IMG/VR virus record: IMGVR_UViG_3300010218_000004
Coordinates: 1-64,000 of that record
Source: a virus
Strand: one strand, 5' to 3'
Length of the DNA stretch: 64,000 nucleotides
Of this stretch, positions 7,550-52,690 are shown piece after piece (positions within the stretch are counted from its first letter, which is position 1; every line of letters starts with the position of its first letter). Under the pieces are notes generated by a model. It saw nothing but the letters and a program-made list of their open reading frames with translations. It searched no databases and was not told the origin of the DNA. The translations under genes and the position numbers were made by a program.

Positions 7550-8131
7550 ATGGCAGGCGAGACCATCATCACCGTCGTCGGGAACCTCGTCGACGACCCC
7601 GAACTCCGCTTCACCCCCTCCGGCGCGGCCGTCGCGAAGTTCCGCGTCGCATCCACCCCCCGCGTCTTCGACCGGCCCACCAACGAGTGGAAGGACGGCG
7701 ACAGCCTGTTCCTCACCTGCTCCGTGTGGAGGCAGGCCGCGGAGAACGTCGCCGAGTCGTTGCAGCGCGGCATGCGCGTCATCATCCAGGGCCGCCTCAA
7801 GCAGCGCTCGTACGAGGACAACGAGGGCGTGCGACGGACCGTGTACGAACTCGACGTCGAGGAGGTCGGCGCGTCCCTGCGGAACGCGACCGCGAAGGTG
7901 GAGAAGGTCCGCCGCAACAGCGACGGCTACGGCAACGGCAGCGGCAGCGGCAGCGCGCCGGCCTCGTCCGGCGGGGGCGGCTGGAACGGCGGCGGACAGC
8001 AGCAGTCGGGCGGCGGCGACCCGTGGGCGGGGGGCCCGCCGGCCGGCGGCGGCTGGTCCAACGGCGGCAACAACAGCGGCAGCTGGTCCGGCGGCGATGC
8101 CGGCGGCTACTCCGATGAGCCCCCGTTCTGA
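7550..8131 (+). CDS. ssb: Single-stranded DNA-binding protein
   Basis: N-terminal OB fold ([29 protein letters not shown]), a Gly-rich linker and the acidic tail DEPPF. Confidence 0.95.
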
Positions 8132-8289
8132 TGCCCGCCGACACCATCCGCACGGGGCGGTGCGATACCGGCCGCCCCCTCTGCGGGAAACCCGCCCGCC
8201 TCTATGCCGCCGGCTGGCGCTGCGACGACCACATCCCCCGCGCCTACACCCGGCCCGCCACCGCCGACACCCGCAAGGAGGACTCGTGA
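8131..8289 (+). CDS. Hypothetical small Cys-containing protein (52 aa)
   Basis: Translated by hand; it is below the ORF-track size cutoff. ATGA overlap with ssb and GTGA overlap with the next gene. Confidence 0.45.
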   Translation: MPADTIRTGRCDTGRPLCGKPARLYAAGWRCDDHIPRAYTRPATADTRKEDS

Positions 8290-8582
8290 ACGCCACCCCT
8301 CGCCCGTCCGGCGCGACACTCCGCCGGGCCGGCGCGGCCGCCGCCGTCGCCGTCATGCTCGCCGCCGCCCTCACCGACTACGACCGGACCCGGCACGACG
8401 ACACACCCCGTACCGGGGTCGTCGACACCGGGCCCGCGGACGGCATCCGCATGCCCGACGGCTACTCCACCGCCGACACGAAGTGCTTCCACGGCGACCG
8501 CGTGTACGCCCGCTACCACGGCGAGACCCGCTACGACGACAACGTCCTCGTCCCCGCCGACCCCACCTGCAAGCAGCACTAG
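8286..8582 (+). CDS. Secreted or membrane-anchored protein, paralogue of 8605..8910
   Basis: GTG start in the tail of ORF 6789..8582. Has an N-terminal hydrophobic segment. Shares G(V)V..(G)PAD.IRMPDG(Y/F)S.A.TKC.HG.R.Y..YHG...Y......PADPTC with the next gene. Confidence 0.6.
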   Translation: MNATPRPSGATLRRAGAAAAVAVMLAAALTDYDRTRHDDTPRTGVVDTGPADGIRMPDGYSTADTKCFHGDRVYARYHGETRYDDNVLVPADPTCKQH

Positions 8583-8604
8583 CCCACACCACACGGGAGA
8601 ACAC

Positions 8605-8910
8605 ATGAAGCACACCGACCAGCCGACCACCCCGCGCCGGATCAAGAAGGCGTACATCGCCGCCGGAGGCGCCGCCGTCCTCGCCCTCCTCCTCGGCGCC
8701 TGCGACAAGTACACCGAGCCCTTCAAGGACTCGCCGCGCTCGGGTGTCGTGAACAACCAGCCCGCCGACATCATCCGCATGCCCGACGGGTTCTCCGCCG
8801 CGGCAACCAAGTGCGACCACGGAAACCGGATCTACACCCTGTACCACGGCGACTCGAAGTACGGCGCCATCTGGGGTGTCCCCGCCGACCCCACCTGTCG
8901 CGGCAAGTGA
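8605..8910 (+). CDS. Putative lipoprotein
   Basis: Signal peptide with a lipobox (LLLGAC). Paralogous to 8286..8582. Confidence 0.7.
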   Translation: MKHTDQPTTPRRIKKAYIAAGGAAVLALLLGACDKYTEPFKDSPRSGVVNNQPADIIRMPDGFSAAATKCDHGNRIYTLYHGDSKYGAIWGVPADPTCRGK

Positions 8911-8921
8911 CGTCCCCTTAG

Positions 8922-8951
8922 GGCGCCCCGGCACTCGACCGCCGGGGCGCC
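8922..8951 (+). terminator. Hairpin with the conserved loop ACUCGACC
   Basis: GGCGCCCCGGC-ACTCGACC-GCCGGGGCGCC. Confidence 0.65.
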
Positions 8952-9005
8952 GAATACCGCCGGCCGCCACCTCTGGCGCCCGGCCCCTCATACATAGCCC
9001 GATAA

Positions 9006-9038
9006 AGTCATGCGCGTGCGTATGACTTACGATAGGGT
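9006..9038 (+). promoter_or_regulatory. Promoter/operator AGTCAT-N10-ATGAC-N6-TAGGGT
   Basis: Inverted repeat AAGTCAT...ATGACTT overlapping a -10-like TAGGGT, 12 nt before the ATG at 9051. The same architecture occurs at 11226-11258. Confidence 0.5.
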
Positions 9039-9050
9039 TGTGAAGCCGAC

Positions 9051-9623
9051 ATGACCCACCCAGACACAAAGGACACGCGCACCATGACCCTCCGCCGCCC
9101 GAAGATCACACGCCGAGACTGCTACGCCACCGCCGCCCTCATCGCCTACATCGCCACCATCCCTGGCGCGAACTGGCTCGTGACCCACCTCGGCCCCGTC
9201 AGTGTCGGCTTCGGCTACAGCGCCCCGGCTGGCGTATACCTCGTCGGCCTCACCCTCGTCCTGCGTGACGCCGTGCAGCAGCTCCTCGGCCGCCGCGCCG
9301 CCCTCCTGGCCGTCGCCCTCGGCGTCGCCGTCTCATACGCCCTCGCTGACCCAACCCTGGCCCTCGCGTCCGTCGTCGGGTTCGCCGTCTCCGAACTCGC
9401 CGATACCGCCGTCTACACCTCACTCCGCGACCGCGGCCTCATCGGCGCCGTCCTCGCCGCGAACGCCGTCGGTCTCGTCCTCGACAGCGTGCTGTTCCTC
9501 GGGATCGCCTTCCACAGCCAGGAGTACCTGCCCGGCCAGATCCTCGCGAAGACGTACATGACGCTCGCCGCCGTCGTCGTCATAGCCGCCTACCGGCGCC
9601 CGGCCCGGAGGCTCGTCGCGTGA
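9051..9623 (+). CDS. yhhQ: YhhQ/VUT-family queuosine-precursor (preQ0/preQ1) transporter
   Basis: Multi-pass membrane protein. Carries ANWLV...LRDAVQ...SELADTAVYTSLR...ANAVGLVLDSVLF, typical of the YhhQ/DUF165 family. Confidence 0.8.
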   Translation: MTHPDTKDTRTMTLRRPKITRRDCYATAALIAYIATIPGANWLVTHLGPVSVGFGYSAPAGVYLVGLTLVLRDAVQQLLGRRAALLAVALGVAVSYALADPTLALASVVGFAVSELADTAVYTSLRDRGLIGAVLAANAVGLVLDSVLFLGIAFHSQEYLPGQILAKTYMTLAAVVVIAAYRRPARRLVA

Positions 9624-10531
9624 GAGCCAAGCTCATGCTTGGTACCTGCGAGGATCACTGGCTCTGGTCGGATGACCCCCGTTTCGACGGCATCACCTTC
9701 TTCGTCTCCCGTAACCGCTTCGCGCGGCGCAAGAAGGAGATGCCGCGGGCCCTCCACCCCTTCGCCATGGATTCCGGCGGATACACGGAGCTCCAGCGGC
9801 ACGGCCGCTGGCGCTCCACCCCGCAGGAATACGTCGACGAGGTACGCCGCTACATCAGCGAACTCGGCGAGGACATGGTCCTGTGGATCGCCCCGCAGGA
9901 CTGGATGACCGAGCCCTGGACGATCTTCGGCGGATGGCACGACGGCCAGCACTTCGTCGGTACCCGCGAGGCCCGCGGCCTCGCCCCCGGCGACCCCGAG
10001 CAGGACCTCACCACCGCCGCCCGTATCCACATCCGTTACACCGTCGACAACTTCCTCGAGCTGAGGCGAATCGCCCCCGACCTCAAAATCATCCCGGTAC
10101 TCCAGGGCCAGAAGCTCGACGACTACAAGTACTGCGCCAGCCTCTACGAGGCAGCCGGTATCGACCTCGCCGCCGAACCCGTCGTCGGCCTCGGCAGTGT
10201 CTGCCGCCGTGAGGCCACCCTCGAAATCGCCGAACTCGTCGCCCACTTCACCGACCTCGGCCTCAACCTCCACGGCTTCGGAGTCAAGTCGAGCGGCCTC
10301 AGCCTCTACGGAGACGACCTCGTCTCCGCCGACTCCCAAGCCTGGTCCTTCGGGATGCGCCGTCGCAAGAAGGGCCCCGACGGCAGCCGCCGCCTCCCCG
10401 GATGCACACACCGCGCCCAGACATGCGCGCACTGCCCGGAGGCCGCAGTCCGCTGGTACCGCCGTGCTCTCAACAGCGCGCACCCCGAGAACGGCTGGCA
10501 AATGACGCTGGACATGGCCGTCGTCGCGTGA
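9620..10531 (+). CDS. dpdA: DpdA-like (tRNA-guanine transglycosylase superfamily) 7-deazaguanine DNA transglycosylase
   Basis: Has the TGT catalytic motif AMDSGGYTELQ, a second Asp region (DDLVSADSQAWSF) and a C-terminal Cys cluster (C..C..C). Coupled to yhhQ. Confidence 0.8.
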   Translation: MRAKLMLGTCEDHWLWSDDPRFDGITFFVSRNRFARRKKEMPRALHPFAMDSGGYTELQRHGRWRSTPQEYVDEVRRYISELGEDMVLWIAPQDWMTEPWTIFGGWHDGQHFVGTREARGLAPGDPEQDLTTAARIHIRYTVDNFLELRRIAPDLKIIPVLQGQKLDDYKYCASLYEAAGIDLAAEPVVGLGSVCRREATLEIAELVAHFTDLGLNLHGFGVKSSGLSLYGDDLVSADSQAWSFGMRRRKKGPDGSRRLPGCTHRAQTCAHCPEAAVRWYRRALNSAHPENGWQMTLDMAVVA

Positions 10532-11154
10532 ACGCGCCCGCCCCGCCACGAGATAGGAACCGACCGGTGACCGTAGCCCTCATCCCGCCCATCACCGGGT
10601 ACCCGGGCCGTATCGAGGCGACCGCTCTGACCGAGGGCCCCCGCTTCGTCCGCACCGAGGCCATGACCCGCTGGCACCGGCCCCGCTCCGCGTTCCTCCG
10701 GCACCGCGACTCGGTCACCGTCTTCGACCTGTGGTGCGGGCAGATCACGTTCAGCTACAAGGCCCTCACCGCCGACACCGTCCCGGCTGGCGACCGGGTG
10801 TGCGCCACCTGCGACGGTCGCGCGGTCGGCGCCGGCCAGGAGACGGACGGCCCGGCCGGCCGCACCCTCACCTTCCAGCCCCGCCACCTCAACCCGCCCC
10901 GCAACTGCCCCGGTTCCCGGACCGGCATGTTCGAGGAGCTCCCCGGCGGCCGCGCCGGCCGATGCCTCGTCTGCGGCGACTGCCAGCCGCTGCGCGCCAT
11001 GGGAGGCCCGTACGCCTCCCGCTACGCGATCGTCCAGCACGACCCCGGCAAGGCCCTCGTCGCACCGTGCCCGTTCCACCGCTGGCGCGCCCTGTCCGCC
11101 CGTGACGGCCGCATCTACTGCCCGTGCGGCACCGAGTTGAGGCCCGTCACGTAG
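10528..11154 (+). CDS. Hypothetical Cys-rich protein
   Basis: GTGA coupling to dpdA (GTG 10567 is the alternative start). Contains several CxxC pairs. Confidence 0.55.
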   Translation: MNAPAPPRDRNRPVTVALIPPITGYPGRIEATALTEGPRFVRTEAMTRWHRPRSAFLRHRDSVTVFDLWCGQITFSYKALTADTVPAGDRVCATCDGRAVGAGQETDGPAGRTLTFQPRHLNPPRNCPGSRTGMFEELPGGRAGRCLVCGDCQPLRAMGGPYASRYAIVQHDPGKALVAPCPFHRWRALSARDGRIYCPCGTELRPVT

Positions 11155-11225
11155 GCCCGCCCATCCCGCCGTTCCCCCCGGCCCGCCCGACGGGTGCGGG
11201 GTAGTGGCGCATCACACCAAACAAA

Positions 11226-11258
11226 AGTCATATGCACGCGCATGACATACGCTAGTGT
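11226..11258 (+). promoter_or_regulatory. Promoter/operator AGTCAT-N10-ATGAC-N6-TAGTGT
   Basis: Same spacing and flanks as the 9006-9038 element. Confidence 0.5.
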
Positions 11259-11290
11259 CGTGCCACCGCACCCCACCCCGGAGTCGCCGC

Positions 11291-11425
11291 ATGCCCGCAC
11301 ACCGCCATGACGTCGACGTGCCGTTCACCATCACCGGCACCGTCGCGGCCGTCGTCCTCGTCGCCCTCGCCGTCACCGTCGGCACCGCCGCCGTCCTCGC
11401 CCACGCCGCCCGCACCGTCCGATAG
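11291..11425 (+). CDS. Hypothetical small membrane protein (44 aa)
   Basis: Translated by hand. GGAG RBS and a single TM segment (GTVAAVVLVALAVTVGTAAVLA). Confidence 0.4.
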   Translation: MPAHRHDVDVPFTITGTVAAVVLVALAVTVGTAAVLAHAARTVR

Positions 11426-11441
11426 GCCCGGGACCCACCGC

Positions 11442-11876
11442 ATGCCCACCGACACCTCGACACCCACCCTCGAGCAGCTCCTCAACCTCGCCGACCGCGC
11501 CGAGTACAACGGCGGCCTCACCCACGCCGAGGCGAACCGGCTCCGCGCCGGCCTCCGCACCTACGGCCTGCCCATCGAGGCCCACGTCGCGGAACTCCGC
11601 CGAAGCAACTGGGATCTCGGCAACCGCCTCGGGCGCGTCACCACCGCCCACAAGTCGATCTCGGCCCGGTTCGCCGCCCTCCGCCAGAACAACCGCAGCC
11701 TCAGTAACCGCCTCTGGCGCGCCACCACCGCCCACCGAACGACCGTCGACGCGGAGGCGCACGCCGCCGTCCACCGCGTCACCGCCCTCGCGCAGCGCTG
11801 GTCGTTCATCCCCGCCAAGCGGCAGGCCGCCGCCGCCATCCTCGCCGCCCTCCACAACAAGGACACCGATGACTGA
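11442..11876 (+). CDS. Hypothetical coiled-coil protein
   Basis: Internal ATG of ORF 11307..11876. The upstream part of that ORF is Ser/Pro-rich and looks non-coding. Confidence 0.6.
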   Translation: MPTDTSTPTLEQLLNLADRAEYNGGLTHAEANRLRAGLRTYGLPIEAHVAELRRSNWDLGNRLGRVTTAHKSISARFAALRQNNRSLSNRLWRATTAHRTTVDAEAHAAVHRVTALAQRWSFIPAKRQAAAAILAALHNKDTDD

Positions 11877-15936: not shown

Positions 15937-16722
15937 ATGCGCACCGTCCAGCCCCAGGTACACCTCATCGGCCGCCCCACCCTCGACTACGACGCCATCG
16001 CCGCATACCTCCACGACGTCGGCGGCCACACATGGCTCGAACGCCTCGACCGCGGCGAACTCGACGGCGCCCAGAACCTCGCAGAGCTCGCCGGCCGCAT
16101 CTGCTACCGATCATGGGAGCCCGGACTCAACCCCAACGTGACCCGGGTACGCACCGATCAGGACGACTACCTCGGCAACATCCTCGCCGCCACCCACGGC
16201 TCCGTAGTCGAACACGCCACCTTCAACTTCATCCTCCACAACGTCAGCCGCGTCGTCACCCACGAACTCGTGCGCCACCGCGTCGGCGTCGCCGTCTCTC
16301 AGGAATCCCTCCGCTACGTACGCCTCACCGACCTCCCGTTCTGGTTCCCCGACTGGGCACACGACGACGACGAACTCACCACCCGCGCAACCACCCTCCT
16401 CGAGCAGATGGAGGCGTTCCAGCAGTGGATGGCCGACCACTTCGCCCTCGACGACCCCGGCGTCCCCTTCACAGAGAAGAAGGCCAAGACCTCATTCATG
16501 CGCCGCTTCGCCCCGGAGGGCCTGGCCACCGGCCTCGTCTGGTCCGCGAACATCCGCACCCTCCGACACGTCATCGAGACCCGCACCGCACCCGGAGCCG
16601 AAGAGGAGATACGCCTCGTCATCGGCAAGGTCGCCGAACTCGTACAACGGGAGGCCCCGGCCCTGTTCGGCGACTACACCATCGAAGACGGCGCATGGGT
16701 CCCCGGCTGGCGCAAGGTGTGA
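15937..16722 (+). CDS. thyX: FAD-dependent thymidylate synthase ThyX
   Basis: ThyX signature RHRVGVAVSQESLRYV (RHR-x7-S-x-R type), and the length fits. Confidence 0.92.
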   Translation: MRTVQPQVHLIGRPTLDYDAIAAYLHDVGGHTWLERLDRGELDGAQNLAELAGRICYRSWEPGLNPNVTRVRTDQDDYLGNILAATHGSVVEHATFNFILHNVSRVVTHELVRHRVGVAVSQESLRYVRLTDLPFWFPDWAHDDDELTTRATTLLEQMEAFQQWMADHFALDDPGVPFTEKKAKTSFMRRFAPEGLATGLVWSANIRTLRHVIETRTAPGAEEEIRLVIGKVAELVQREAPALFGDYTIEDGAWVPGWRKV

Positions 16723-32143: not shown

Positions 32144-33502
32144 ATGCCGACGCCCCCCGCAGGGGTCCCGCTCACCAGCCTGCAACGCAAGGTCATTGGT
32201 GCTGTCGCCGTCGGAGCCGCCGTCATCGCCGCCATCGGCTTCGTAGGCTCCTACGCGGCCGTCCGGAGCCTCGCCGTGGCCAAGGGTTTCGGCGCGTTCG
32301 CCCTGGCCTTCCCGATCGGGCTCGATGCCGGAATCCTCGTACTCCTCGCCCTCGACCTCCTCCTCACGTGGCTGCGCATGCCGCTCGGCATCCTCCGCCA
32401 CACGGCGTGGCTCCTCACCGCCGCCACCATCGCCTTCAACGCGGCCGCCGCCTGGCCCGACCCTGTCGGTACGGGCATGCACGCCGTCATCCCGGTCCTG
32501 TTCGTCGTCGTCATCGAGGCGGCCCGGCACGCGGTCGGGCAGGCCGCGGACATCGTCGCCGGCCGCCGCATGGAGTCGGTGCGCGTCTCCCGCTGGCTCC
32601 TCGACCCGATCTCGACGTTCCGCCTGTGGCGGCGCATGAAGATGTGGGAGCTGCGTTCCTACGACGACGTCATCGCCCTCGAGCAGCAGCGCCTCATCGA
32701 ACGGGCGCGCCTCCGGGCCCGCTTCGGCCCTCGGTGGCGGTCGAAGGCCCCCGTCGACGCCGTCCTCGCGCTGCGCCTCACCCGGTACGGCCGCGCACTC
32801 GACGCCCCGATCGTCAGCGTCCTCGACGCCGCACCCGTCCCGGCCGCATCCGTGCCGGCGGTCGCCGCAAGTTCGCCAGTGGTTCCTTCCAGGCCCGAAG
32901 CGGAACCGGCCATCGTGGTTCCCCGAACGGATGCGCAGCCGTCGCACACGGATGCGCCCGACGACTTCGACACCCGTGCCGCATCCGCAATCGCCGTCAC
33001 CCGGCAGGCAGATGCGCACCTGGACCCGTGGCCGGAGAAGGAGCCGGAGCCGAGTGCGCAACCGGATGCGGATGCGCAGCCGGACGGCGGCGAGTGCGCA
33101 GCCGACACCCCCGACCCCGCCGAGGAGGATGCGCAACCGGATGCACTCGTACTCGACCTCGCACGGATGCGGCCGCCGCATCCCGACGTGTGCGCACCCG
33201 CACCCGGTACAGATGCGCAACCGCCCGCCCGCCGTAGCCGGCGCACGTCGGCGGCCCGGCGGTCCGGGGCCCGTCGCGGCGCCGTGACCGTGCAGCTTGC
33301 CGACGGGGACGCGGCCTACCTCGAAAAGGCCCGCGCGCTGAACGTGCAGTCGCTCCGCGACGACGGCCGCAGGGCCCCGCTCCGGCTGCTCCAGACCGAA
33401 CTCGGTATCGGCCAGGCGCGCGCCCAGCGCATCCAGGCCGCCCTCCCCGACACCCTCGCCGCCGCCCTCGCGGAGGCGCAGCCCCACGCCAAGGAGGCGT
33501 GA
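32144..33502 (+). CDS. DUF2637-like polytopic membrane protein with a long DAQP-repeat linker (plasmid Spd-like)
   Basis: ATG after an AGGAGG RBS. The N-terminal 4 TM segments (SYAAVRSLAVAKGFG..AFPIGLDAGILVLLALDL..) resemble actinobacterial DUF2637/Spd proteins. This family call is from memory. Confidence 0.5.
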   Translation: MPTPPAGVPLTSLQRKVIGAVAVGAAVIAAIGFVGSYAAVRSLAVAKGFGAFALAFPIGLDAGILVLLALDLLLTWLRMPLGILRHTAWLLTAATIAFNAAAAWPDPVGTGMHAVIPVLFVVVIEAARHAVGQAADIVAGRRMESVRVSRWLLDPISTFRLWRRMKMWELRSYDDVIALEQQRLIERARLRARFGPRWRSKAPVDAVLALRLTRYGRALDAPIVSVLDAAPVPAASVPAVAASSPVVPSRPEAEPAIVVPRTDAQPSHTDAPDDFDTRAASAIAVTRQADAHLDPWPEKEPEPSAQPDADAQPDGGECAADTPDPAEEDAQPDALVLDLARMRPPHPDVCAPAPGTDAQPPARRSRRTSAARRSGARRGAVTVQLADGDAAYLEKARALNVQSLRDDGRRAPLRLLQTELGIGQARAQRIQAALPDTLAAALAEAQPHAKEA

Positions 33503-34469: not shown

Positions 34470-34870
34470 ACAGCATCTTCGGCAACCTCGGCACCGTGGG
34501 CCTGGCCCTCGCCCTCACCGTGCTGTTGTTCGTCGGCATCCCCGGCGGCGGCAAGCTCAAGCCGCTCGGCTGGTGGACCACGGTCTTCGTCTCGATGCTC
34601 GCGGGCAGCGCCTACAAGGCCGCGGGCGGAATGTTCAAAGTCGTCCCCGACTTCGTCGGCTGGCTGGTCTCCTTCGCTCAGGGCTTCTGGCGGGGTGCGA
34701 CCATGCCCAGCCTCGCCGTCTGCCTGCTCATCATCATGTTGTGGAAGAAGATGACGACGAAGCAGGTCGCGATCGTCTCCCTGATCTTCTTCTACGTCGC
34801 CGCCGGCGCCGGCGGTAACTGGTCGTACATCAGCGACGCCATCCAGAACGCCCGGATGGGCCTGCAATGA
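34466..34870 (+). CDS. Polytopic membrane protein
   Basis: GTGA coupling to the preceding gene. Tail of ORF 33734..34870. Confidence 0.6.
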   Translation: MNSIFGNLGTVGLALALTVLLFVGIPGGGKLKPLGWWTTVFVSMLAGSAYKAAGGMFKVVPDFVGWLVSFAQGFWRGATMPSLAVCLLIIMLWKKMTTKQVAIVSLIFFYVAAGAGGNWSYISDAIQNARMGLQ

Positions 34871-37271: not shown

Positions 37272-37866
37272 CGGACGAGTGAGGGCGGGTTCTGCTCGGG
37301 TACTCGGTCTGCGGCCGCCCTGCCCCACGGGGCCACGGTCTCGGAGGACGTGGCGCGTGCACTCCTGTAGTGGGGGGTCGCCGGGCGGGGAGCCGGCCCG
37401 TAGAAATACTCGACGGTAACTCTCGCATTGGAGATCGTCGTGGATGGTCGGGCTTTTACCTATAACCGGCCGGGCGCCCCGGAAAAACCTGAACGGCGGT
37501 GCGTATGTGTATCCGGCACCTATAGAGAAGGTCACGGTTCCCTAATCGCCGCTTGGCCGTCCGCAAATGATCATCGCGGGTGACGCATATGCCCGGAACG
37601 CGGGATTCCGGTGACTCTGCGACGTTCGGTCAAACGCGGAGAGTTAGCGTCGAGATGCCCCTCCCGTCACCCTTGGCCAAAGCTGCCACGGGTTACCGCA
37701 GGTAGCAGTATCAGTGGTGCGTCTGCGTAGTCACCACGACGGCGACCGACGCGGTCCAGTCACGACCGCGCCGAGACCGGGCGGCTATTTCCCTGCAAAT
37801 CTCGCAGGCAAATGAGATCGGAAAGTAGTCCATGATGTGTGTCGTTCACGGTTCAACTCGGGGGGC

Positions 37867-38721
37867 ATGGAAGTGATACAGGGGGCGTTGAAGGAGGCGT
37901 TGCAGCACCTCCTCCAGAATCGCCGGGCGGAACTCGACCCGGCTGACTTCGGCATCACCCGCGGCGCCCGACAGGGGCGACGCGCAGCCGGCGGGGGTCT
38001 CTCCCAGACGCAGGTCGACGACCTCCTCGGCTTCGGCCGGGGCACGTACGAGCGCCTCGAAAACGGCCGCTACCGGGAGGCTCCCGAGCACGTCCTCAAG
38101 GCGGTGGGGGAGCTGTTCGACCTCAACGCACACGAGTGGGTATGGCTGTGGCGCATGACCTGGCGCCGCGACCCCCCGTACCCGCTCCGCCCGGAGACCG
38201 AGGAGGTCATCCCCGCCTCATGGCACCGGGTCCTCGACGGCCAGCCCCACCCGGCCTACCTCACCAACCACCGCTGGGAGGTCGTCGCCTACAACCAGCA
38301 CTTCCCGCGCATCTTCCCCGACCGTCGTGTCCCCCCGAACACGATGGAGTGGATGCTGCTGTCGCCCGACGCCCGCTGGGTTCTCGGCGACTGGAAAAAC
38401 GCCTGGGCGCCGTTCATCGCACCCCACGTCTGGGCCGCCCGGGCCGCGCACCCGAAGGACGAGTACCTCGCCGACTTCGAGCGGCGCATCCTCGCCGACG
38501 AGGAGGCCGGCCCGATCTACCAGGACTTCGGGCCGATCTTCGTTCACCCCGACGGGGCGTGCCGCCCCTTCAACCACCCCGAACTCGGGCCCGGCTGGAT
38601 CACCCTCCACACGTCGGTCCCCAGGTCGTCATCCAGCTTCACCACCATGCTCATGATCTTCGATCCGGGCCCGGAGCGTCCCCAAGTCCTCCCACCGCTC
38701 CACGCCCGCTACGGCGGCTGA
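37867..38721 (+). CDS. MmyB-like transcriptional regulator (XRE HTH plus a C-terminal ligand-binding-type domain)
   Basis: LQNRRAELDPADFGI...GLSQTQVDDLLGFGRGTYERLENGR is followed by a ~190-aa domain with ...AYLTNHRWEVVAYNQ..., as in MmyB-family proteins. Confidence 0.65.
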   Translation: MEVIQGALKEALQHLLQNRRAELDPADFGITRGARQGRRAAGGGLSQTQVDDLLGFGRGTYERLENGRYREAPEHVLKAVGELFDLNAHEWVWLWRMTWRRDPPYPLRPETEEVIPASWHRVLDGQPHPAYLTNHRWEVVAYNQHFPRIFPDRRVPPNTMEWMLLSPDARWVLGDWKNAWAPFIAPHVWAARAAHPKDEYLADFERRILADEEAGPIYQDFGPIFVHPDGACRPFNHPELGPGWITLHTSVPRSSSSFTTMLMIFDPGPERPQVLPPLHARYGG

Positions 38722-38812
38722 CACCCGCCCCATGACCGGGGTGGCGGGCAACACGCCCCCGATGCCCGCCACCCCGTCACCGCACCACCGTTCACCCATC
38801 CCGGAGGCACCC

Positions 38813-39868
38813 ATGCCCGCACACATCAGACGGCCCGTCATACGGCTCGCTGAACATCCCGTCACCACCGACGCCCTCCTCACGCACGTCCGCGACACGC
38901 ACTCCGCCGACCACCCCCGCATGCCGCTGTGGGAGCGCCTCATCCGCAACACCGGCGTCCGGGAGCGGCGTTGGGCCCGGCCGCTCCCGGAGGCGACCGT
39001 GCGTACCGGTGTCGCCCACCGCGCCAAGACGGCGTTCGGCGATGCTCTCGACCTCGCCGAAACCGCCGCCCGCGAGGCCCTCGACGTCGCCGGACTCGAC
39101 CCCGGCGACGTCGACGCCCTCGTCACCAGCCACACCACCAGCTGGACCGTGCCCGGCATCGACGTCCACCTCGTCGAACGCCTCGGCCTCCGCCCCACCC
39201 TGGCCCGCATGCCACTGTCCACCCTCGCCTGCGCCGGCGGCGCCACCGCCCTCATCCGCGCCCTCGACTACACCCGAGCCTGGCCCGGCGCCCGCGTCCT
39301 CGTCGTCGTCGCCGAAACCCTCTCGACCATCTACCACGACACGGAGACCACCCCGGAGTCGATGATCTACCGGGGCCTCTTCGGGGACAGTGCCGGAGCG
39401 TGCATCGTCACCGGCATCCACCCCGGCCACCCGGCCCCTGACGGCGGCGGGTTCCTCGTCGAACGCCCCTACGAACTGACGATGCCGGGCACCCGCGACC
39501 GCTACTGGGGCGCCATCGACGGCGACGGCCTCCACTTCCTCTCCACCCGCGCCGCCGCCCGCGCGGCCGCCGACGCCATCCCGTACATCGCCGACTGGCT
39601 CGGCGATCGCCCCGTCGAGTGGACGGTCGCGCACCCCGGCGGGCCCCGCATCATCGACGACTTCGTCAACGGCCTCGGCCTCGACGCGGAGAAGGACGGC
39701 CGGCACTCCCACGCCTCCCTCGCCGAGAACGGCAACCTCGGCGGCGTCGCCGTCCTCGACGTCCTCCGCCGCACCCACGACGACCCACCCGCACCCGGCG
39801 CCTCCGGTGTGCTCGCCGGGTTCGGCCCGGGCTTCAACGTCGCCGCCCTACACGGCTCCTGGACCTGA
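38813..39868 (+). CDS. Type III polyketide synthase (chalcone/stilbene synthase superfamily, RppA-like)
   Basis: Cys-His-Asn triad contexts are present: STLACAGGATAL, FGDSAGACIV, AHPGGPRIID, NGNLGGVAVLDVL and GFGPGFNV. ATG 38813 follows a GGAGG RBS (ATG 38732 is the alternative). Confidence 0.85.
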   Translation: MPAHIRRPVIRLAEHPVTTDALLTHVRDTHSADHPRMPLWERLIRNTGVRERRWARPLPEATVRTGVAHRAKTAFGDALDLAETAAREALDVAGLDPGDVDALVTSHTTSWTVPGIDVHLVERLGLRPTLARMPLSTLACAGGATALIRALDYTRAWPGARVLVVVAETLSTIYHDTETTPESMIYRGLFGDSAGACIVTGIHPGHPAPDGGGFLVERPYELTMPGTRDRYWGAIDGDGLHFLSTRAAARAAADAIPYIADWLGDRPVEWTVAHPGGPRIIDDFVNGLGLDAEKDGRHSHASLAENGNLGGVAVLDVLRRTHDDPPAPGASGVLAGFGPGFNVAALHGSWT

Positions 39869-41872: not shown

Positions 41873-43435
41873 ATGCCCGCCGTCTACATCGACACCCGTG
41901 ACGTCCCCCTCGACGAGCTGACGCCGTTCCCCGGGAACGCCAAGCGGGGCCGCCCGGACGAGATCCTCGTCAGCCTCCGCCGTAACGGCCAATACCGCGG
42001 CCTCGTCGTCCGGCAGACCGGCGGCGCGCTCATCGTCCTCGCCGGCAACCACACGTTGCAGGCCCTCAAGGCCCACGGGCCGGGCCGCTGCGAGTACGCC
42101 GACCACGAGGACGCGCCGTGTGGCATGTGCGCGGACGGCACGTGGGACGGCACCACCGCCCGCTGCGAGATCATCGACTGCGACGACCAGGACGCGCGCC
42201 GTATCAACCTCGCCGACAACCGGCTGGCCGAGCTCGGCGGGTACGACAATGATGACCTCGCCGAACTCCTCTCCTACATGGACGGGGACTACGCCGGTAC
42301 CGGTTACAGCGAGGCCGACGTCATGCGGCTGATCACGCCGCCGGACGTCGACGACCTCCTCGACGGCGACGGCGAGGACGCGGAGCCTGCGGAGGCGCCG
42401 TCGCTCGCGGAACGGTTCCTCATCCCGCCGTTCGACGTCCTCGACGCCCGACAGGGATGGTGGCGCACCCGGAAGCGGCAGTGGCTGTCCCTCGGCATCG
42501 TGTCGGAGGTCGGCCGCGACGGGAACCTCGCCTTCGCCGACGTGTCGATGGCGGACCCGGACTACTACCGGAAGAAGGAAGAGGCGCAGCAGCAGGCAGG
42601 CCGCGCCCTGACGAACGCCGAGTTCGAGGCCGACTACTACACGCCGCTCGATACGTCATGGAGTGGCGGAACGTCGGTGTTCGACCCCGTCATGTGCGAA
42701 CTGGCCTACCGCTGGTTCTCCCCGCAGGGCGGCACGGTCCTCGACCCGTTCGCGGGCGGTTCCGTCCGCGGCCTCGTCGCCGGCATCCTCGGCCGCCCCT
42801 ACCGTGGAAACGACCTGCGGCCGGAGCAGGTGGAGTCGAACCGGGAGCAGCGCGACGCGTTCGCCCGGCGCGGCCTCCTCGCCGCCGACCCGGAATGGAC
42901 GATCGGGGACTCCGCGGACTGGGTCACCACCCTGGAGCCGGAGAGCGCCGACATGGTGTTCACCTGCCCGCCCTACTACGACCTCGAGGAGTATTCCTCG
43001 AACCCGGCCGACCTGTCGGCCATGTCATACGACGACTTCGACGCCGCGTACGCCCGGATCATCGCCGGTGCCGCCCGCGCGTTGAAGGCGAACCGGTGGG
43101 CAGTGTTCGTCGTCGGTGACGCCCGCGACAGCAAGGGTGCGCTGCACGACCTGCGCGGCTCCACGGTCCGCGCCGCGACGGCTGCGGGACTCACCTACGC
43201 CTCCGGTGGCGTCCTCGTCACCCCGGTCGGGTCCACGGCCATCATGGCCGGGAAGGTGTTCACCGCGACCCGAGGTCTCGGCCGCGTCCACCAGGACGTG
43301 CTCGTGTTCTGCAAGGGCAGCCGCTCCCTCGCCGCGCAGGCATGCGGCGACGTCGACGTCCACCTCCCCGACGGCGCCGCCGACGCGTTCGCCGATGCTG
43401 AGGACGACGACGAGAACCTTCCCGAAGCGGCTTGA
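41873..43435 (+). CDS. ParB-like nuclease domain fused to a DNA methyltransferase
   Basis: The N-terminus (LTPFPGNAKRG...VLAGNHTLQA) is ParB/Srx-like. The AdoMet motif VLDPFAGGS is followed about 75 aa later by the catalytic motif FTCPPYY. Confidence 0.8.
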   Translation: MPAVYIDTRDVPLDELTPFPGNAKRGRPDEILVSLRRNGQYRGLVVRQTGGALIVLAGNHTLQALKAHGPGRCEYADHEDAPCGMCADGTWDGTTARCEIIDCDDQDARRINLADNRLAELGGYDNDDLAELLSYMDGDYAGTGYSEADVMRLITPPDVDDLLDGDGEDAEPAEAPSLAERFLIPPFDVLDARQGWWRTRKRQWLSLGIVSEVGRDGNLAFADVSMADPDYYRKKEEAQQQAGRALTNAEFEADYYTPLDTSWSGGTSVFDPVMCELAYRWFSPQGGTVLDPFAGGSVRGLVAGILGRPYRGNDLRPEQVESNREQRDAFARRGLLAADPEWTIGDSADWVTTLEPESADMVFTCPPYYDLEEYSSNPADLSAMSYDDFDAAYARIIAGAARALKANRWAVFVVGDARDSKGALHDLRGSTVRAATAAGLTYASGGVLVTPVGSTAIMAGKVFTATRGLGRVHQDVLVFCKGSRSLAAQACGDVDVHLPDGAADAFADAEDDDENLPEAA

Positions 43436-49507: not shown

Positions 49508-52500
49508 ATGGGCCTCCTCGACCGCGTCAGCAAGGTGTTCGGGAACCGTCCGCCGGCCGACGTGCAGGCCGCTACGGACGTCGCGCAGATGGGGCCGACG
49601 AGCCCGTTCTCCCCGGGCGAGCCGATCAGCCCGTACGACGGGTACAGCCGCACGCCGCGGAGCAAGGACTACGTCACCGGGTACAACATCTCGGCGCGGC
49701 CGAAGGCGCATGAGCGGGTCAGCTACGAAACGCTGCGCGGCCTCATCGAGGCGTACGACGTCGCCCAGATGTGCATTTGGCACCGCATCGACTCCATCCG
49801 CGCCCTCGACTGGTCCCTCGTCCCGGCGCGCGGGTTCAGCGGCGACGCGGATGCAGCGATCGCGCAGGGCATGGCCGTCCTCGCGAAGCCGGACCGTAAG
49901 ACCCCGTTCGGGTCGTGGCTCGCCACCTGGCTGTACGACATCCTGGCGTACGACGCCGGCGCCCTCTACCGGCTCCGCAACCGCGGCGGCCGCGCGATCG
50001 GCCTCCGCGTCGTCGACGGCACGACGATTGCGCCGCTGCTCGACTACTGGGGCGACTCCCCGGCCGACCCGGCGCCGGCGTACGTGCAGTACGCGCAGGG
50101 CCTGCCCTGGTCGTGGCTCACCCGGAAAGACCTCATCTACGTCCCGTTCCGGCCCCGCTCCAACTCGCCGTATGGGTACGCCCCGCTTGAGTCGATCTTG
50201 CTCAATGCGAATACAGACTTGCGGTTTCAGGCGTACTTCCTCCAGCGGTTCACCGACGGGAACATCCCGGAGGCGTTCGCGTCGGCGCCGGAGACATGGA
50301 CGCCGCAGCAGATCGAGGAGTTTCAGGGCTACTGGGACGCCGCCATGTACGGCGACCAGGCCGCGAAGCACCAGATCCGATGGATGCCGGGCGGCGGCAA
50401 GATCGAATGGAGCAATGAGAAGGAGTTCTCCGACGCCTTCTCCCTGTTCCTGATGAGGAAGACGTGCGCGGCCTACCACATCGTGCCCGCCGACCTCGGG
50501 TTCACGGAGTCCGTCAACCGGTCCTCCGGTGAGACGCAGGCGGACGTGCAGCACCGCGTCGGCGACCTGCCCCTCGTCACCCACGTGCAGGACGTCCTCA
50601 CCGACTTCCTCCAGCACGACATGGGCCTCCCGGTCGAGTTCAGTTTCGACACCGGGCAGGAGAAAGAGGACCGGCTCACCCTCGCGCAGGCGTGGCAGAT
50701 CTACATTGAGTCCGGCATGGCCAGCCCCGACGAGGGCCGCGAGGAACTCCTCGGCCTGCCCGCCGACCCGCGGCAGCCCACGCCCCGCTTCTTCAACACC
50801 AGCCGGTCCGGGCCGGTTCCACTGCTGTCCATCATGGGCCTCGGCGGCCGCATCGACCCGGAGACGTACGCGCCGGCCGACGACCAGCCCATCCCCGCGC
50901 AGCCCGCGGTCCCGGCCCCCGGCACCGTCCCGGCGTCCGGCACCACGGACGCAGCATCGGCCGCGGCCGCTGAGGACGCCTACCGGTCCAGCGTGCACGA
51001 CGCCGTCCTCGCCAAGGAGGCGGCGGCCGCGGAGGGCATCACCACCGGCACCGGCCTCCACGGCTACGACCTCGACGAGGGGGAGGACGCCGACGATGTG
51101 GCCGAGCTGACCAAGGAGATGGCCGCGTTCCGGTCGTTCCGCAAGGCCCGCCGCCGCAACGGCGTGTGGCGCGACTTCGAGTTCCGGCACGTCGACGCCC
51201 GCACCGGCCGCCGCCTCAACCAGGCCGGCCGCGCGCGGCTACGGAAGGACGCCGGTGAGATCGCCTGTGCGGGCCTCGCCGTGCAGGCCCTCGACACCGG
51301 CCGCGTCCTCATGCTCCAGCGCGCCCTCGACCCGGACGACCCGGCCGGCGGAATGTGGGAGTTCCCCGGCGGACACCTCGAGGGTGAGGAGTCCGCGATC
51401 GCGGCCGCCGCCCGCGAATGGTCGGAGGAGACCGGGCTGATCCTGCCCTTCGACCCCGAGGCCATGGCCGCCCTGGCCTTCGGCAACGGCCGCGGGTGGA
51501 CGTCCGGCATCTACGCCGGGTACGTCTACCCGATCCGTTCCGAGTCGCTCCTCGACCTCGGCCGCCGCGACCAGGTGACCAACCCCGACGACCCCGACGG
51601 AGACATCGTCGAGGCCGTCGCCTGGTGGGAGCCCGCGCAACTGCGCGGCAACCCGGCCGTCCGCCCCGAACTCCTCGACGCGCTCGACGACGTCCTCACC
51701 GCCCTCGGCAGCGAGCCGGCAGGCCCGGAGGACGGCACGGAGGCCATGTGCCCGTGCGGGATGCCCGCACGGTTCGACGCCATGGACGGCTGGCAGCACC
51801 TCGACGGCTCCCACGGACACGACGACGACGAGTCGGTGGCGGAGAAGCTGGGGTTCGCGAAGGCGGCCCACCCAAAAGGTGACGGCGGCTCCGACCGGTG
51901 GCCCGGCTGGGCGATGGACCTCAAGGCCATCGCCCACTGGACGCCCCGGATCGTCGCCGCCCTCCGCGGCTCCGTCGCCGCACGCCGCCTCGTCGACGCC
52001 TGGCTCGCCCTCAACCCCCGCTCCACCGCCTCCCGTAAGGCGGACCGGCTGCGGGAGCTGAACGGGCAGGCGCAGAAGTGGCTGGAGAAGTACGCGCCCG
52101 ACGTCGAGGCGGCCCTCACCGACGTCCTCGGCGGTGTCTACGCCGACGGCTACCTCATCGGCCTCCTGTGCGCGGAGAACGTCACCGCAGGCGCGGCCAC
52201 CGCCATCGACTGGGGGGCCTGGACGCCGGGCGACACCGCCGCCGCCCGACTCCTCGCCGGCAGCCTCGGCGACGGCCGGGGCCTCGAGGCCCTGCTCCGC
52301 GACAGCGGCGTCACCATCCGCTCTATCGCCGCGAACCGGCTCAAGGCCCTCGGCATGATCCTCGCCGACGGCGCCGAACGCGGCGACAGCGTGGACACGA
52401 TCGCCTCCGCAATCCAAGGTCTGCTGTCCAACCCGTCCCGCGCCGAGATGATCGCGACGACGGAACTCAACCGGGCCGTATCGCGGGCGAGTCTCGGCTC

Positions 52501-52690
52501 CTACATCCGCAACGGCATCGACGCCGTCGAGTGGATCAGCGCCGGAGACGGCCGCGTCTGCAACATCTGCGCCGACAACGCCGACGGCGGCCCCCGCCCG
52601 CCCGGCGACTTCTTCCCCTCCGGTGTGACCGCACCGCCCGGGCACCCCTGGTGCCGCTGCGCCCTCGTGCCCGTGATCGGAGGCCCGTGA
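49508..52690 (+). CDS. Portal protein fused to a Nudix hydrolase domain and a MuF/SPP1-gp7-like head morphogenesis domain
   Basis: 1060 aa. The N-terminal ~470 aa are portal-like by position and size. A perfect Nudix box GGHLEGEESAIAAAAREWSEETGL lies at about 51.37-51.44 kb. The C-terminus MIATTELNRA...GDGRVCNICADN...PPGHPWCRCALVPV is the MuF motif. Confidence 0.8.
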   Translation: MGLLDRVSKVFGNRPPADVQAATDVAQMGPTSPFSPGEPISPYDGYSRTPRSKDYVTGYNISARPKAHERVSYETLRGLIEAYDVAQMCIWHRIDSIRALDWSLVPARGFSGDADAAIAQGMAVLAKPDRKTPFGSWLATWLYDILAYDAGALYRLRNRGGRAIGLRVVDGTTIAPLLDYWGDSPADPAPAYVQYAQGLPWSWLTRKDLIYVPFRPRSNSPYGYAPLESILLNANTDLRFQAYFLQRFTDGNIPEAFASAPETWTPQQIEEFQGYWDAAMYGDQAAKHQIRWMPGGGKIEWSNEKEFSDAFSLFLMRKTCAAYHIVPADLGFTESVNRSSGETQADVQHRVGDLPLVTHVQDVLTDFLQHDMGLPVEFSFDTGQEKEDRLTLAQAWQIYIESGMASPDEGREELLGLPADPRQPTPRFFNTSRSGPVPLLSIMGLGGRIDPETYAPADDQPIPAQPAVPAPGTVPASGTTDAASAAAAEDAYRSSVHDAVLAKEAAAAEGITTGTGLHGYDLDEGEDADDVAELTKEMAAFRSFRKARRRNGVWRDFEFRHVDARTGRRLNQAGRARLRKDAGEIACAGLAVQALDTGRVLMLQRALDPDDPAGGMWEFPGGHLEGEESAIAAAAREWSEETGLILPFDPEAMAALAFGNGRGWTSGIYAGYVYPIRSESLLDLGRRDQVTNPDDPDGDIVEAVAWWEPAQLRGNPAVRPELLDALDDVLTALGSEPAGPEDGTEAMCPCGMPARFDAMDGWQHLDGSHGHDDDESVAEKLGFAKAAHPKGDGGSDRWPGWAMDLKAIAHWTPRIVAALRGSVAARRLVDAWLALNPRSTASRKADRLRELNGQAQKWLEKYAPDVEAALTDVLGGVYADGYLIGLLCAENVTAGAATAIDWGAWTPGDTAAARLLAGSLGDGRGLEALLRDSGVTIRSIAANRLKALGMILADGAERGDSVDTIASAIQGLLSNPSRAEMIATTELNRAVSRASLGSYIRNGIDAVEWISAGDGRVCNICADNADGGPRPPGDFFPSGVTAPPGHPWCRCALVPVIGGP

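Follow-up and report, generated by a model that had tools for sequence, protein, structure and literature searches.

A coupled transporter and transglycosylase gene pair as a candidate salvage-dependent DNA 7-deazaguanine module on a Streptomyces phage or phage-plasmid

We have analysed a stretch of viral DNA of 64,000 nucleotides, corresponding to positions 1-64,000 of the IMG/VR record IMGVR_UViG_3300010218_000004 (this whole stretch is called the window, and all coordinates refer to it). Two open reading frames on the same strand occupy positions 9051-10531 and encode a membrane protein of the VUT/YhhQ family and a DpdA-family protein of the TGT superfamily. With a probability that we put at roughly 0.55, the two genes constitute a minimal, salvage-dependent module for DNA 7-deazaguanine modification, carried by a circular Streptomyces phage or phage-plasmid of ~97.7 kb. 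We read the pair as depending on salvage because its coupling is conserved and the two proteins diverge together, because synthesis genes are nearly absent from the surroundings of this DpdA clade, and because the same VUT subfamily is found in chromosomal preQ0/Dpd islands. The linkage of the two genes and the position of VUT genes in such islands also support a preliminary description of this DNA, which had suggested that the element scavenges queuosine precursors.

The downstream gene (9620-10531, plus strand) encodes a protein of 303 residues, which is predicted to be a DNA guanine/7-deazaguanine transglycosylase from the results of Pfam, AlphaFold2 (AF2), Foldseek and hhalign. The protein matched the Pfam family PF23859 with an E-value of 3.8e-56 (190.7 bits; cutoff 27) and PHROG 1279 with 7.6e-59. 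Its AF2 model (pLDDT 89.8, pTM 0.88) gave as the first-ranked Foldseek match 7UI4, the DNA preQ0 insertase DpdA of Salmonella Montevideo (E 1e-7), followed at the second and third ranks by bacterial TGT. In an hhalign comparison with the DpdA of phage Rosebush, in which 28% of G is replaced by dPreQ0 (PMC6884629), the probability was 85% and the DSGG, D94, GLGS, HGFG and D238 positions were in register. The corresponding comparison with the DpdA of Escherichia phage CAjan gave a probability of 5.7%, and the HGFG...DSS segment alone was aligned. The PADLOC models of bacterial DpdA did not match the window protein, while a Streptomyces chromosomal DpdA was matched by them at 1e-192.

Three aspartates, D51 in DSGG, D94 in PQDW and D238 in SADS, are invariant in 34 homologues with identities of 52-85%. 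The DSGG codons (D51-S52-G53-G54) lie at 9770-9781 on the plus strand, where S52 is invariant as well, and align to DSGAF of Rosebush; D51 is the predicted general acid/base. The D238 codon (10331-10333, plus strand), located in the segment SADS(Q/M)AWS and aligning to VDSSGW of Rosebush, is predicted to specify the nucleophile. The invariant active-site aspartates of S. Montevideo DpdA are D95, D130 and D256, and these are shared by DpdA and TGT (PMC10164549). Judging from the order of the motifs, by which the equivalence to the residues of 7UI4 is assigned, D51, D94 and D238 probably correspond to these three. A predicted structural zinc site, C262-x-H264-x4-C269-x2-C272, is encoded at 10403-10435 on the plus strand. 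In this conserved pattern C272 is invariant, C269 is nearly so and position 262 is either C or H; its spacing is unlike the CxCxxC...H of TGT, and the pLDDT of the AF2 model there is 72-78.

The upstream gene (9051-9623, plus strand) encodes a protein of 190 residues assigned by Pfam, PHROG, NCBIfam, hhalign and AF2 to the VUT/QPTR (YhhQ) family of six-helix membrane proteins. It matched Vut_1 (PF02592) with 7.5e-12 and 46.3 bits (cutoff 27.2) over residues 101-178 only, and PHROG 4899 over its full length with 3.7e-35. The comparison with E. coli YhhQ by hhalign covered the whole core (134 columns, 26% identity, 95.5% probability), and the identity to the YhhQ of phage CAjan was 32.5%. Hydrophobic segments are present, and six long helices, each of 18-30 residues, are seen in the AF2 model (pLDDT 90.4). 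E. coli YhhQ/QPTR (COG1738), a validated importer of preQ0 and preQ1, is likewise a six-helix membrane protein with the homologous core, but has 221 residues compared with 171-190 for VUT proteins of the window type. On sequence grounds, the window protein is a member of the QPTR/YhhQ family, not an equivalog of a characterised transporter, and it is predicted to import a free 7-deazaguanine base. A possible alternative, shorter start is the ATG at 9084, just before which AAAGGA is found. When the model was used for a fold search, no significant match was obtained in the PDB, which holds no solved QPTR structure as a comparator; the S-components ThiT and RibU of energy-coupling factor (ECF) transporters resembled it weakly and non-significantly.

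The TGA stop codon of the VUT gene (9621-9623) overlaps the GTG start codon of dpdA at 9620, forming GTGA. The Joint Genome Institute (JGI) had called the dpdA start at the ATG at 9635; since homologues start with M[RK]A[KRH]L, GTG 9620 is favoured. The preliminary description had named the two products as a YhhQ/VUT-type importer and a DpdA-like enzyme, for both of which Pfam and PHROG matches were obtained, and its proposal of translational coupling agrees with the GTGA overlap. The DSGG motif and the Cys cluster, which it had read from the sequence, are those conserved in the 34 homologues. Several Streptomyces DpdA homologues (P0034, P0040, P0047, P0058 and P0101) carry a Cys-rich N-terminal extension of ~70 residues (CGHCxCDxCEDCGxC...), and a similar Cys-rich sequence is found at the C-terminus of the VUT homologue P0168. 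The extension and the P0168 tail suggest that the calls of the two genes overlap or that the genes are fused where they meet.

The VUT-DpdA cassette recurs across actinobacterial phages, plasmids and integrated elements. To sample the DpdA clade, 160 loci (80 from IMG/VR and 80 from GTDB species genomes) were collected by alignment-based scans, which were required because a scan of IMG/VR with the single protein found nothing. A VUT gene is present in 47 of these loci, directly upstream on the same strand in 42 and directly downstream in four; where DpdA is at least 50% identical to the window protein, the proportion is 26 of 38. The stop and start codons overlap as [A/G]TGA in 30 of the 44 loci with an upstream VUT gene (43 loci plus the window). 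Where DpdA is closer in identity to the window copy, VUT tends to be so too (Spearman 0.78, p 7e-11). Among the window genes in 1-16.7 kb, the sole other recurrent neighbour of DpdA is SSB (19 loci), and de novo clustering of neighbours added only genes typical of the carriers, namely those for prim-pol, FtsK/TraB-like proteins and methyltransferase.

The same cassette is found on the plasmid NZ_CP046906.1 of Streptomyces sp. QHH-9511, a complete circular phage-plasmid of 91,197 bp having ParA/ParB, terminase, capsid and tail genes. The gene order RusA ... HTH-SSB-x-VUT-DpdA (HTH, helix-turn-helix) is shared with the window, and identities are 60% for DpdA and 56% for VUT. The virion module differs: its capsid is of the P22 type, and the window capsid protein finds no match there. 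The DpdA clade was also found on 70 actinobacterial plasmids, some of them 100-800 kb in size, and in about 400 mycobacteriophages. A further setting is chromosomal, where the neighbouring FtsK/TraB-like and prim-pol genes are of the kind that actinomycete integrative conjugative elements typically carry. On the plasmids and in these chromosomal settings (loci L104-L165, hits H42-H80), the transporter gene is usually missing. The occurrence on plasmids and integrative elements means that the enzyme of this clade is not phage-specific.

Within the DpdA family, gp20 of phage Orion shares 39% identity with the window protein, and the cluster-F-type phage proteins that form the core of PF23859 share ~40%. 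The catalytic aspartates and zinc ligands of the clade are kept in Orion gp20, and an insertion of ~30 residues in the window protein (about residues 104-133) is absent from it. By these alignments, the window DpdA belongs to the mycobacteriophage-type "singleton DpdA" clade, whose members are putative DNA-modifying enzymes. Orion gp20 and Zavala gp40, with 39-41% full-length identity and the same motifs, come from phages which, like the window, have no preQ0 synthesis genes; unlike in the window, no transporter gene is seen beside their dpdA. Hutinet et al. (2019) placed the mycobacteriophage DpdAs in a DpdA-only group of uncertain function (PMC6884629).

The VUT subfamily of the window is genomically tied to preQ0/Dpd genes. 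The commonest Streptomyces homologues of the VUT protein have 171 residues, are 60-64% identical to it and are chromosomal. Their genes lie directly after queC-queE-queD-folE2 and beside a divergent dpdC-dpdB-dpdA-dpdB operon, in which DpdC (1e-109) and bacterial DpdA (1e-192) were detected by PADLOC, with DndB/DpdB-like genes on either side. The genera in which dpd islands are mainly found include Streptomyces, and YhhQ is present in about 9% of such islands (PMC12235509). Two loci from Streptomyces chromosomes (L168, 624-8516, and L171, 635-8516) contain a compact island in which dpdB-dpdA-dpdB-dpdC diverges from queC-queE-queD-folE2-VUT, with transposases on the flanks; within 8 kb of these islands, no gene of the restriction half (dpdD-K) was seen.

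The preliminary description had stated that biosynthesis genes are absent from the window, and two kinds of search agree with it. Pfam searches of the 70 window gene calls found no QueC, PTPS, Radical_SAM, GTP_cyclohydroI or GCHY-1, and six-frame tblastn searches with FolE, QueD, QueE and QueC of CAjan and Rosebush found nothing in the window and two further stretches of the source contig. The same tblastn search detected QueC, QueE and QueD in the Streptomyces chromosomal cluster used as a positive control. It had also been proposed to search the rest of the element for que genes, and none was found in 73% of the circle of ~97.7 kb, nor in the complete QHH-9511 phage-plasmid. On a sibling plasmid of S. 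graminifolii, the 10 kb after the tape-measure gene likewise lack que genes and contain genes for tail proteins, a lysin and GntR. Within 10 kb of DpdA, QueC or QueE occurs in only one of the 160 loci (L044). Enzymes for tailoring of the base (QueF, ArcS, Gat and DpdL/M/N-like) were not found in the window, and neither the DndB family, to which DpdB belongs, nor DpdC was found among the window gene calls.

In the salvage-dependent module that we propose, a promoter under repressor control (palindrome plus -10 element, 9005-9038) would drive the VUT and dpdA genes, whose translation would be coupled. In the host membrane, the VUT/QPTR protein with its six helices would import a free 7-deazaguanine base, most likely preQ0, which the element could not make and which the host in many actinobacteria could not make either. 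DpdA, with a predicted TIM-barrel, would then swap guanines in the double-stranded DNA of the element for the imported base by a TGT-type double displacement, in which D238 would act as the nucleophile, D51 as the acid/base and D94 in base recognition, with a zinc knuckle at residues 262-272. DNA modified in this way may resist restriction upon entry into a new host. Transport, the kind of base, a target in DNA instead of RNA, and protection are all inferred. Streptomyces and Mycobacterium relatives mostly lack the queuosine pathway. It is possible, as a tentative extension of the proposal, that modification is conditional on the chemical environment, with bases being cross-fed by neighbouring producers of preQ0, preQ1 or queuine or of deazapurine antibiotics. 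Such cross-feeding would explain why singleton-DpdA phages that have no transporter, Orion among them, appear unmodified in pure culture.

Several results weigh against the salvage-dependent module. The Foldseek TM-score of the DpdA model to 7UI4 is just 0.53, and when the PDB was searched by sequence alone, the DpdA profile gave no real match up to an E-value of 10. The VUT protein scores under the NCBIfam equivalog cut-offs (31.3 versus 50.95 bits for TIGR00697 and 21.1 versus 252 for PRK11212), and ~26 kb of the circle lies outside the que-gene search. Orion, the sole tested member of the singleton clade, has fewer than 6 modifications per 10^6 nucleotides of its DNA (PMC6884629); this lack has been attributed to missing substrate, its host having no preQ0 (PMC6884629). 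In CAjan and in the chromosomal islands the transporter coexists with full synthesis, which leaves its direction and role unsettled, and deletion of CAjan yhhQ left the modification unaffected (PMC7544227). In addition, the substrates of QPTR/YhhQ members differ, being preQ0/preQ1 in E. coli and queuine in C. trachomatis (PMC11130926, PMC11570991), and the imported base is therefore not fixed (PMC11130926).

This coexistence of transporter and synthesis genes would also be expected if the host itself made preQ0, either from a chromosomal que/dpd island or from a deazapurine antibiotic cluster, with the DpdA of the element mimicking a dPreQ0-type mark of the host, so that a Dpd-type system of the host would take the DNA for its own, and the VUT protein only recapturing leaked base. 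The prominence of Streptomyces among the dpd-island genera, and the Streptomyces chromosomes in which dpdA/B/C and queC/E/D-folE2 are paired with a related VUT gene, are in line with such mimicry. However, the window DpdA is unmatched by the bacterial DpdA models, its DpdB partner is absent from the window gene calls and no restriction half stands beside the examined islands; moreover, shared target motifs of the element DpdA and the host enzyme are an assumption. We consider mimicry of a host mark unlikely.

It is likewise doubtful that the chemistry is the same and the base another one, such as preQ1, queuine, 7-carboxy-7-deazaguanine (CDG) or a derivative of a deazapurine antibiotic in soil. 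The varying specificity of QPTR and the low equivalog scores of the VUT protein noted above leave room for this, the derivatives inserted by the DpdAs of phages are diverse (PMC10516641), and Hutinet et al. raised a possible functional divergence of singleton DpdAs (PMC6884629). The genomic context nevertheless points to preQ0, since the closest VUT homologues adjoin queC, the gene for the preQ0-forming step, together with DpdA/B/C, and the tailoring enzymes listed above are missing from the window.

The cassette might also be silent in most conditions, or the function of DpdA might have been lost or changed, so that the DNA would be unmodified as in Orion. The identity of 39% to Orion gp20 fits this view, and activity has been shown for no member of PF23859. 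We regard it as improbable, however, because the catalytic aspartates and zinc ligands are invariant down to 52% identity and are retained even in Orion gp20, and because phages, plasmids and integrated elements alike keep the two genes coupled and co-diverging, a pattern that would hardly be expected unless selection acted on a function requiring both. Action of the enzyme on tRNA of the host or the element, giving a queuosine- or archaeosine-like modification with the transporter feeding it, would be compatible with the TGT superfamily, with the classical role of QPTR as a queuosine-salvage transporter and with the existence of QPTR-bTGT fusions (PMC11130926), but is very improbable for a short protein of 303 residues whose best structural match and Pfam match are to DpdA, a DNA enzyme, and not to TGT, and whose clade is confined to mobile elements; no tRNA genes are found in the window.

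The proposed salvage-dependent module can be compared with known systems. Phage CAjan has a short YhhQ (159 residues) in its DpdA module (folE-queD-yhhQ-queC-queE ... dpdA) as the window does, but differs from it in having a complete preQ0 pathway, a yhhQ that is dispensable (PMC7544227) and a DpdA that is barely alignable. The Streptomyces Dpd/preQ0 islands share the VUT subfamily and the Dpd system of Salmonella Montevideo shares the TGT-like fold (7UI4), whereas the window has no DpdB, DpdC or que genes; bacterial DpdA requires the DpdB ATPase (PMC10164549).

DNA 7-deazaguanine modification by DpdA, phage homologues of YhhQ and the presence of YhhQ in dpd islands are already known (PMC6884629, PMC7544227, PMC12235509). 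Hutinet et al. explicitly proposed preQ0 of the host or imported precursors as possible sources for DpdA-only phages, and found YhhQ to be uncorrelated with any phage group (PMC6884629). A coupled VUT-DpdA pair as a recurrent module of actinobacterial mobile elements appears to be new, as no description was found in the searchable literature. The function of singleton DpdA in phages whose hosts have no preQ0 has been a puzzle since 2019, and the case of STSV-2 is similar (PMC6884629, PMC10516641). The coupling of VUT and DpdA makes this question testable by supplying the base. If the proposal is true, no DNA hypermodification module smaller than this pair of genes would be known; a mobile element would be outsourcing the synthesis of an anti-restriction mark, and the module could become a portable tool to install 7-deazaguanines in DNA.

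The region upstream of the cassette contains several candidate regulatory features. A GC-rich hairpin with a perfect stem of 11 bp and a loop of 8 nt lies at 8922-8951 on the plus strand, 12 nt after the stop codon of the upstream gene, and forms a terminator-like boundary before the cassette. It has no T-tract and was for this reason not listed by the terminator scan, whose single match in 8000-11500 is at chance level and lies inside dpdA on the minus strand. A near-perfect palindrome of 24 bp, AAGTCATGCGC-GT-GCGTATGACTT, at 9005-9028 is a candidate operator, and directly after it TACGATAGGGT at 9029-9038 (plus strand) provides a -10-like element, TAGGGT. The next intergenic gap has a second such unit, AGTCATATGCACGCGCATGACATACGCTAGTGT, at 11226-11258 on the plus strand, with a second copy of the palindrome at 11226-11247 and TACGCTAGTGT as the -10 part, which would mark the start of the next transcription unit. 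Across the 64 kb there are exactly two occurrences of the common motif AGTCAT-N10-ATGAC-N-TACG-N-TAG-N-GT, each in an intergenic gap of the early block of genes; the chance expectation is ~0.3, and at least two matches arose in 3 of 100 shuffled sequences. The motif is absent from the other loci that were retrieved.

The preliminary description had placed the pair behind its own operator-bearing promoter. A separate palindrome/-10 unit does lie upstream, while the promoter itself is inferred from this unit rather than shown, since a scan of 8000-11500 for the sigma-70 consensus found none. As another candidate for control of the transporter, a preQ1 or other riboswitch was sought upstream of its gene; Rfam gave no match at the gathering threshold in the whole window, and at E-values up to 10 there were only chance-level matches in 8850-9150. 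A Cys-rich open reading frame of 195 residues, called by JGI at 10567-11154 on the plus strand, starts 36 nt after dpdA and ends before the second palindrome/-10 unit. It is probably co-transcribed with the cassette, in which case a single transcription unit of three genes would be framed by two operator/promoter units that resemble each other. This product has no Pfam, PHROG or PADLOC match, and it was rejected as a conserved third partner because a homologue was present in only three of the 160 loci.

The G+C content of the window is 71.5%, and the window is a circular permutation of the JGI contig 3300010224 Ga0136213_1000014 (97,787 bp). On the contig, the transporter gene is at 74,197 and the gene at 34,867 of the window is at 2,281, from which an end overlap of 55 bp and a circle of ~97.7 kb follow. 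The junction of the contig, where this terminal overlap was assembled, is located at 32587-32641. The element encodes ParA, RusA, SSB, ThyX, a ParB-N/methyltransferase fusion, terminase, a tail tube protein and a tape-measure protein, and no integrase was seen in its examined part. No GenBank phage is near-identical to the window at the DNA level, and the capsid protein has only 41% identity to those of Arthrobacter phages Sonali and Mufasa8. Many Streptomyces contigs with lengths of 95-99 kb encode homologues of the tape-measure protein with 69-78% identity; one of these contigs, from S. graminifolii (99 kb), is labelled plasmid and has the same virion gene order as the element. The sizes of these contigs and the plasmid label make it most likely that the element is a member of a ~97-kb Streptomyces phage-plasmid family.

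Some other genes of the element were observed in this analysis. The preliminary description had counted ThyX and the ParB-methyltransferase together with the cassette as up to three layers of DNA chemistry; both genes are present, but the count is overstated, as ThyX is a dTMP synthase and not a modification layer. The ThyX gene (15937-16722; Thy1, 1e-39) specifies a flavin-dependent thymidylate synthase and gives no sign of thymine modification. The product of 41873-43435 joins a ParB-like N-terminal region to an N6/N4 DNA methyltransferase (type II methyltransferase models, best 2e-11) and from its domains is a predicted second, independent DNA-modification function of the element. A protein of 1060 residues encoded at 49508-52690 combines portal, Mu-F-like and NUDIX domains and has a counterpart of 1063 residues on the S. 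graminifolii sibling plasmid. Positions 37837-39868 encode an MmyB-like regulator (HTH_31 plus MLTR_LBD) and, after it, a type III polyketide synthase (chalcone/stilbene synthase, RppA-like). The QHH-9511 phage-plasmid shares this pair, annotated there as an XRE regulator and 'PhlD', and a polyketide synthase on phage-plasmids is unusual.

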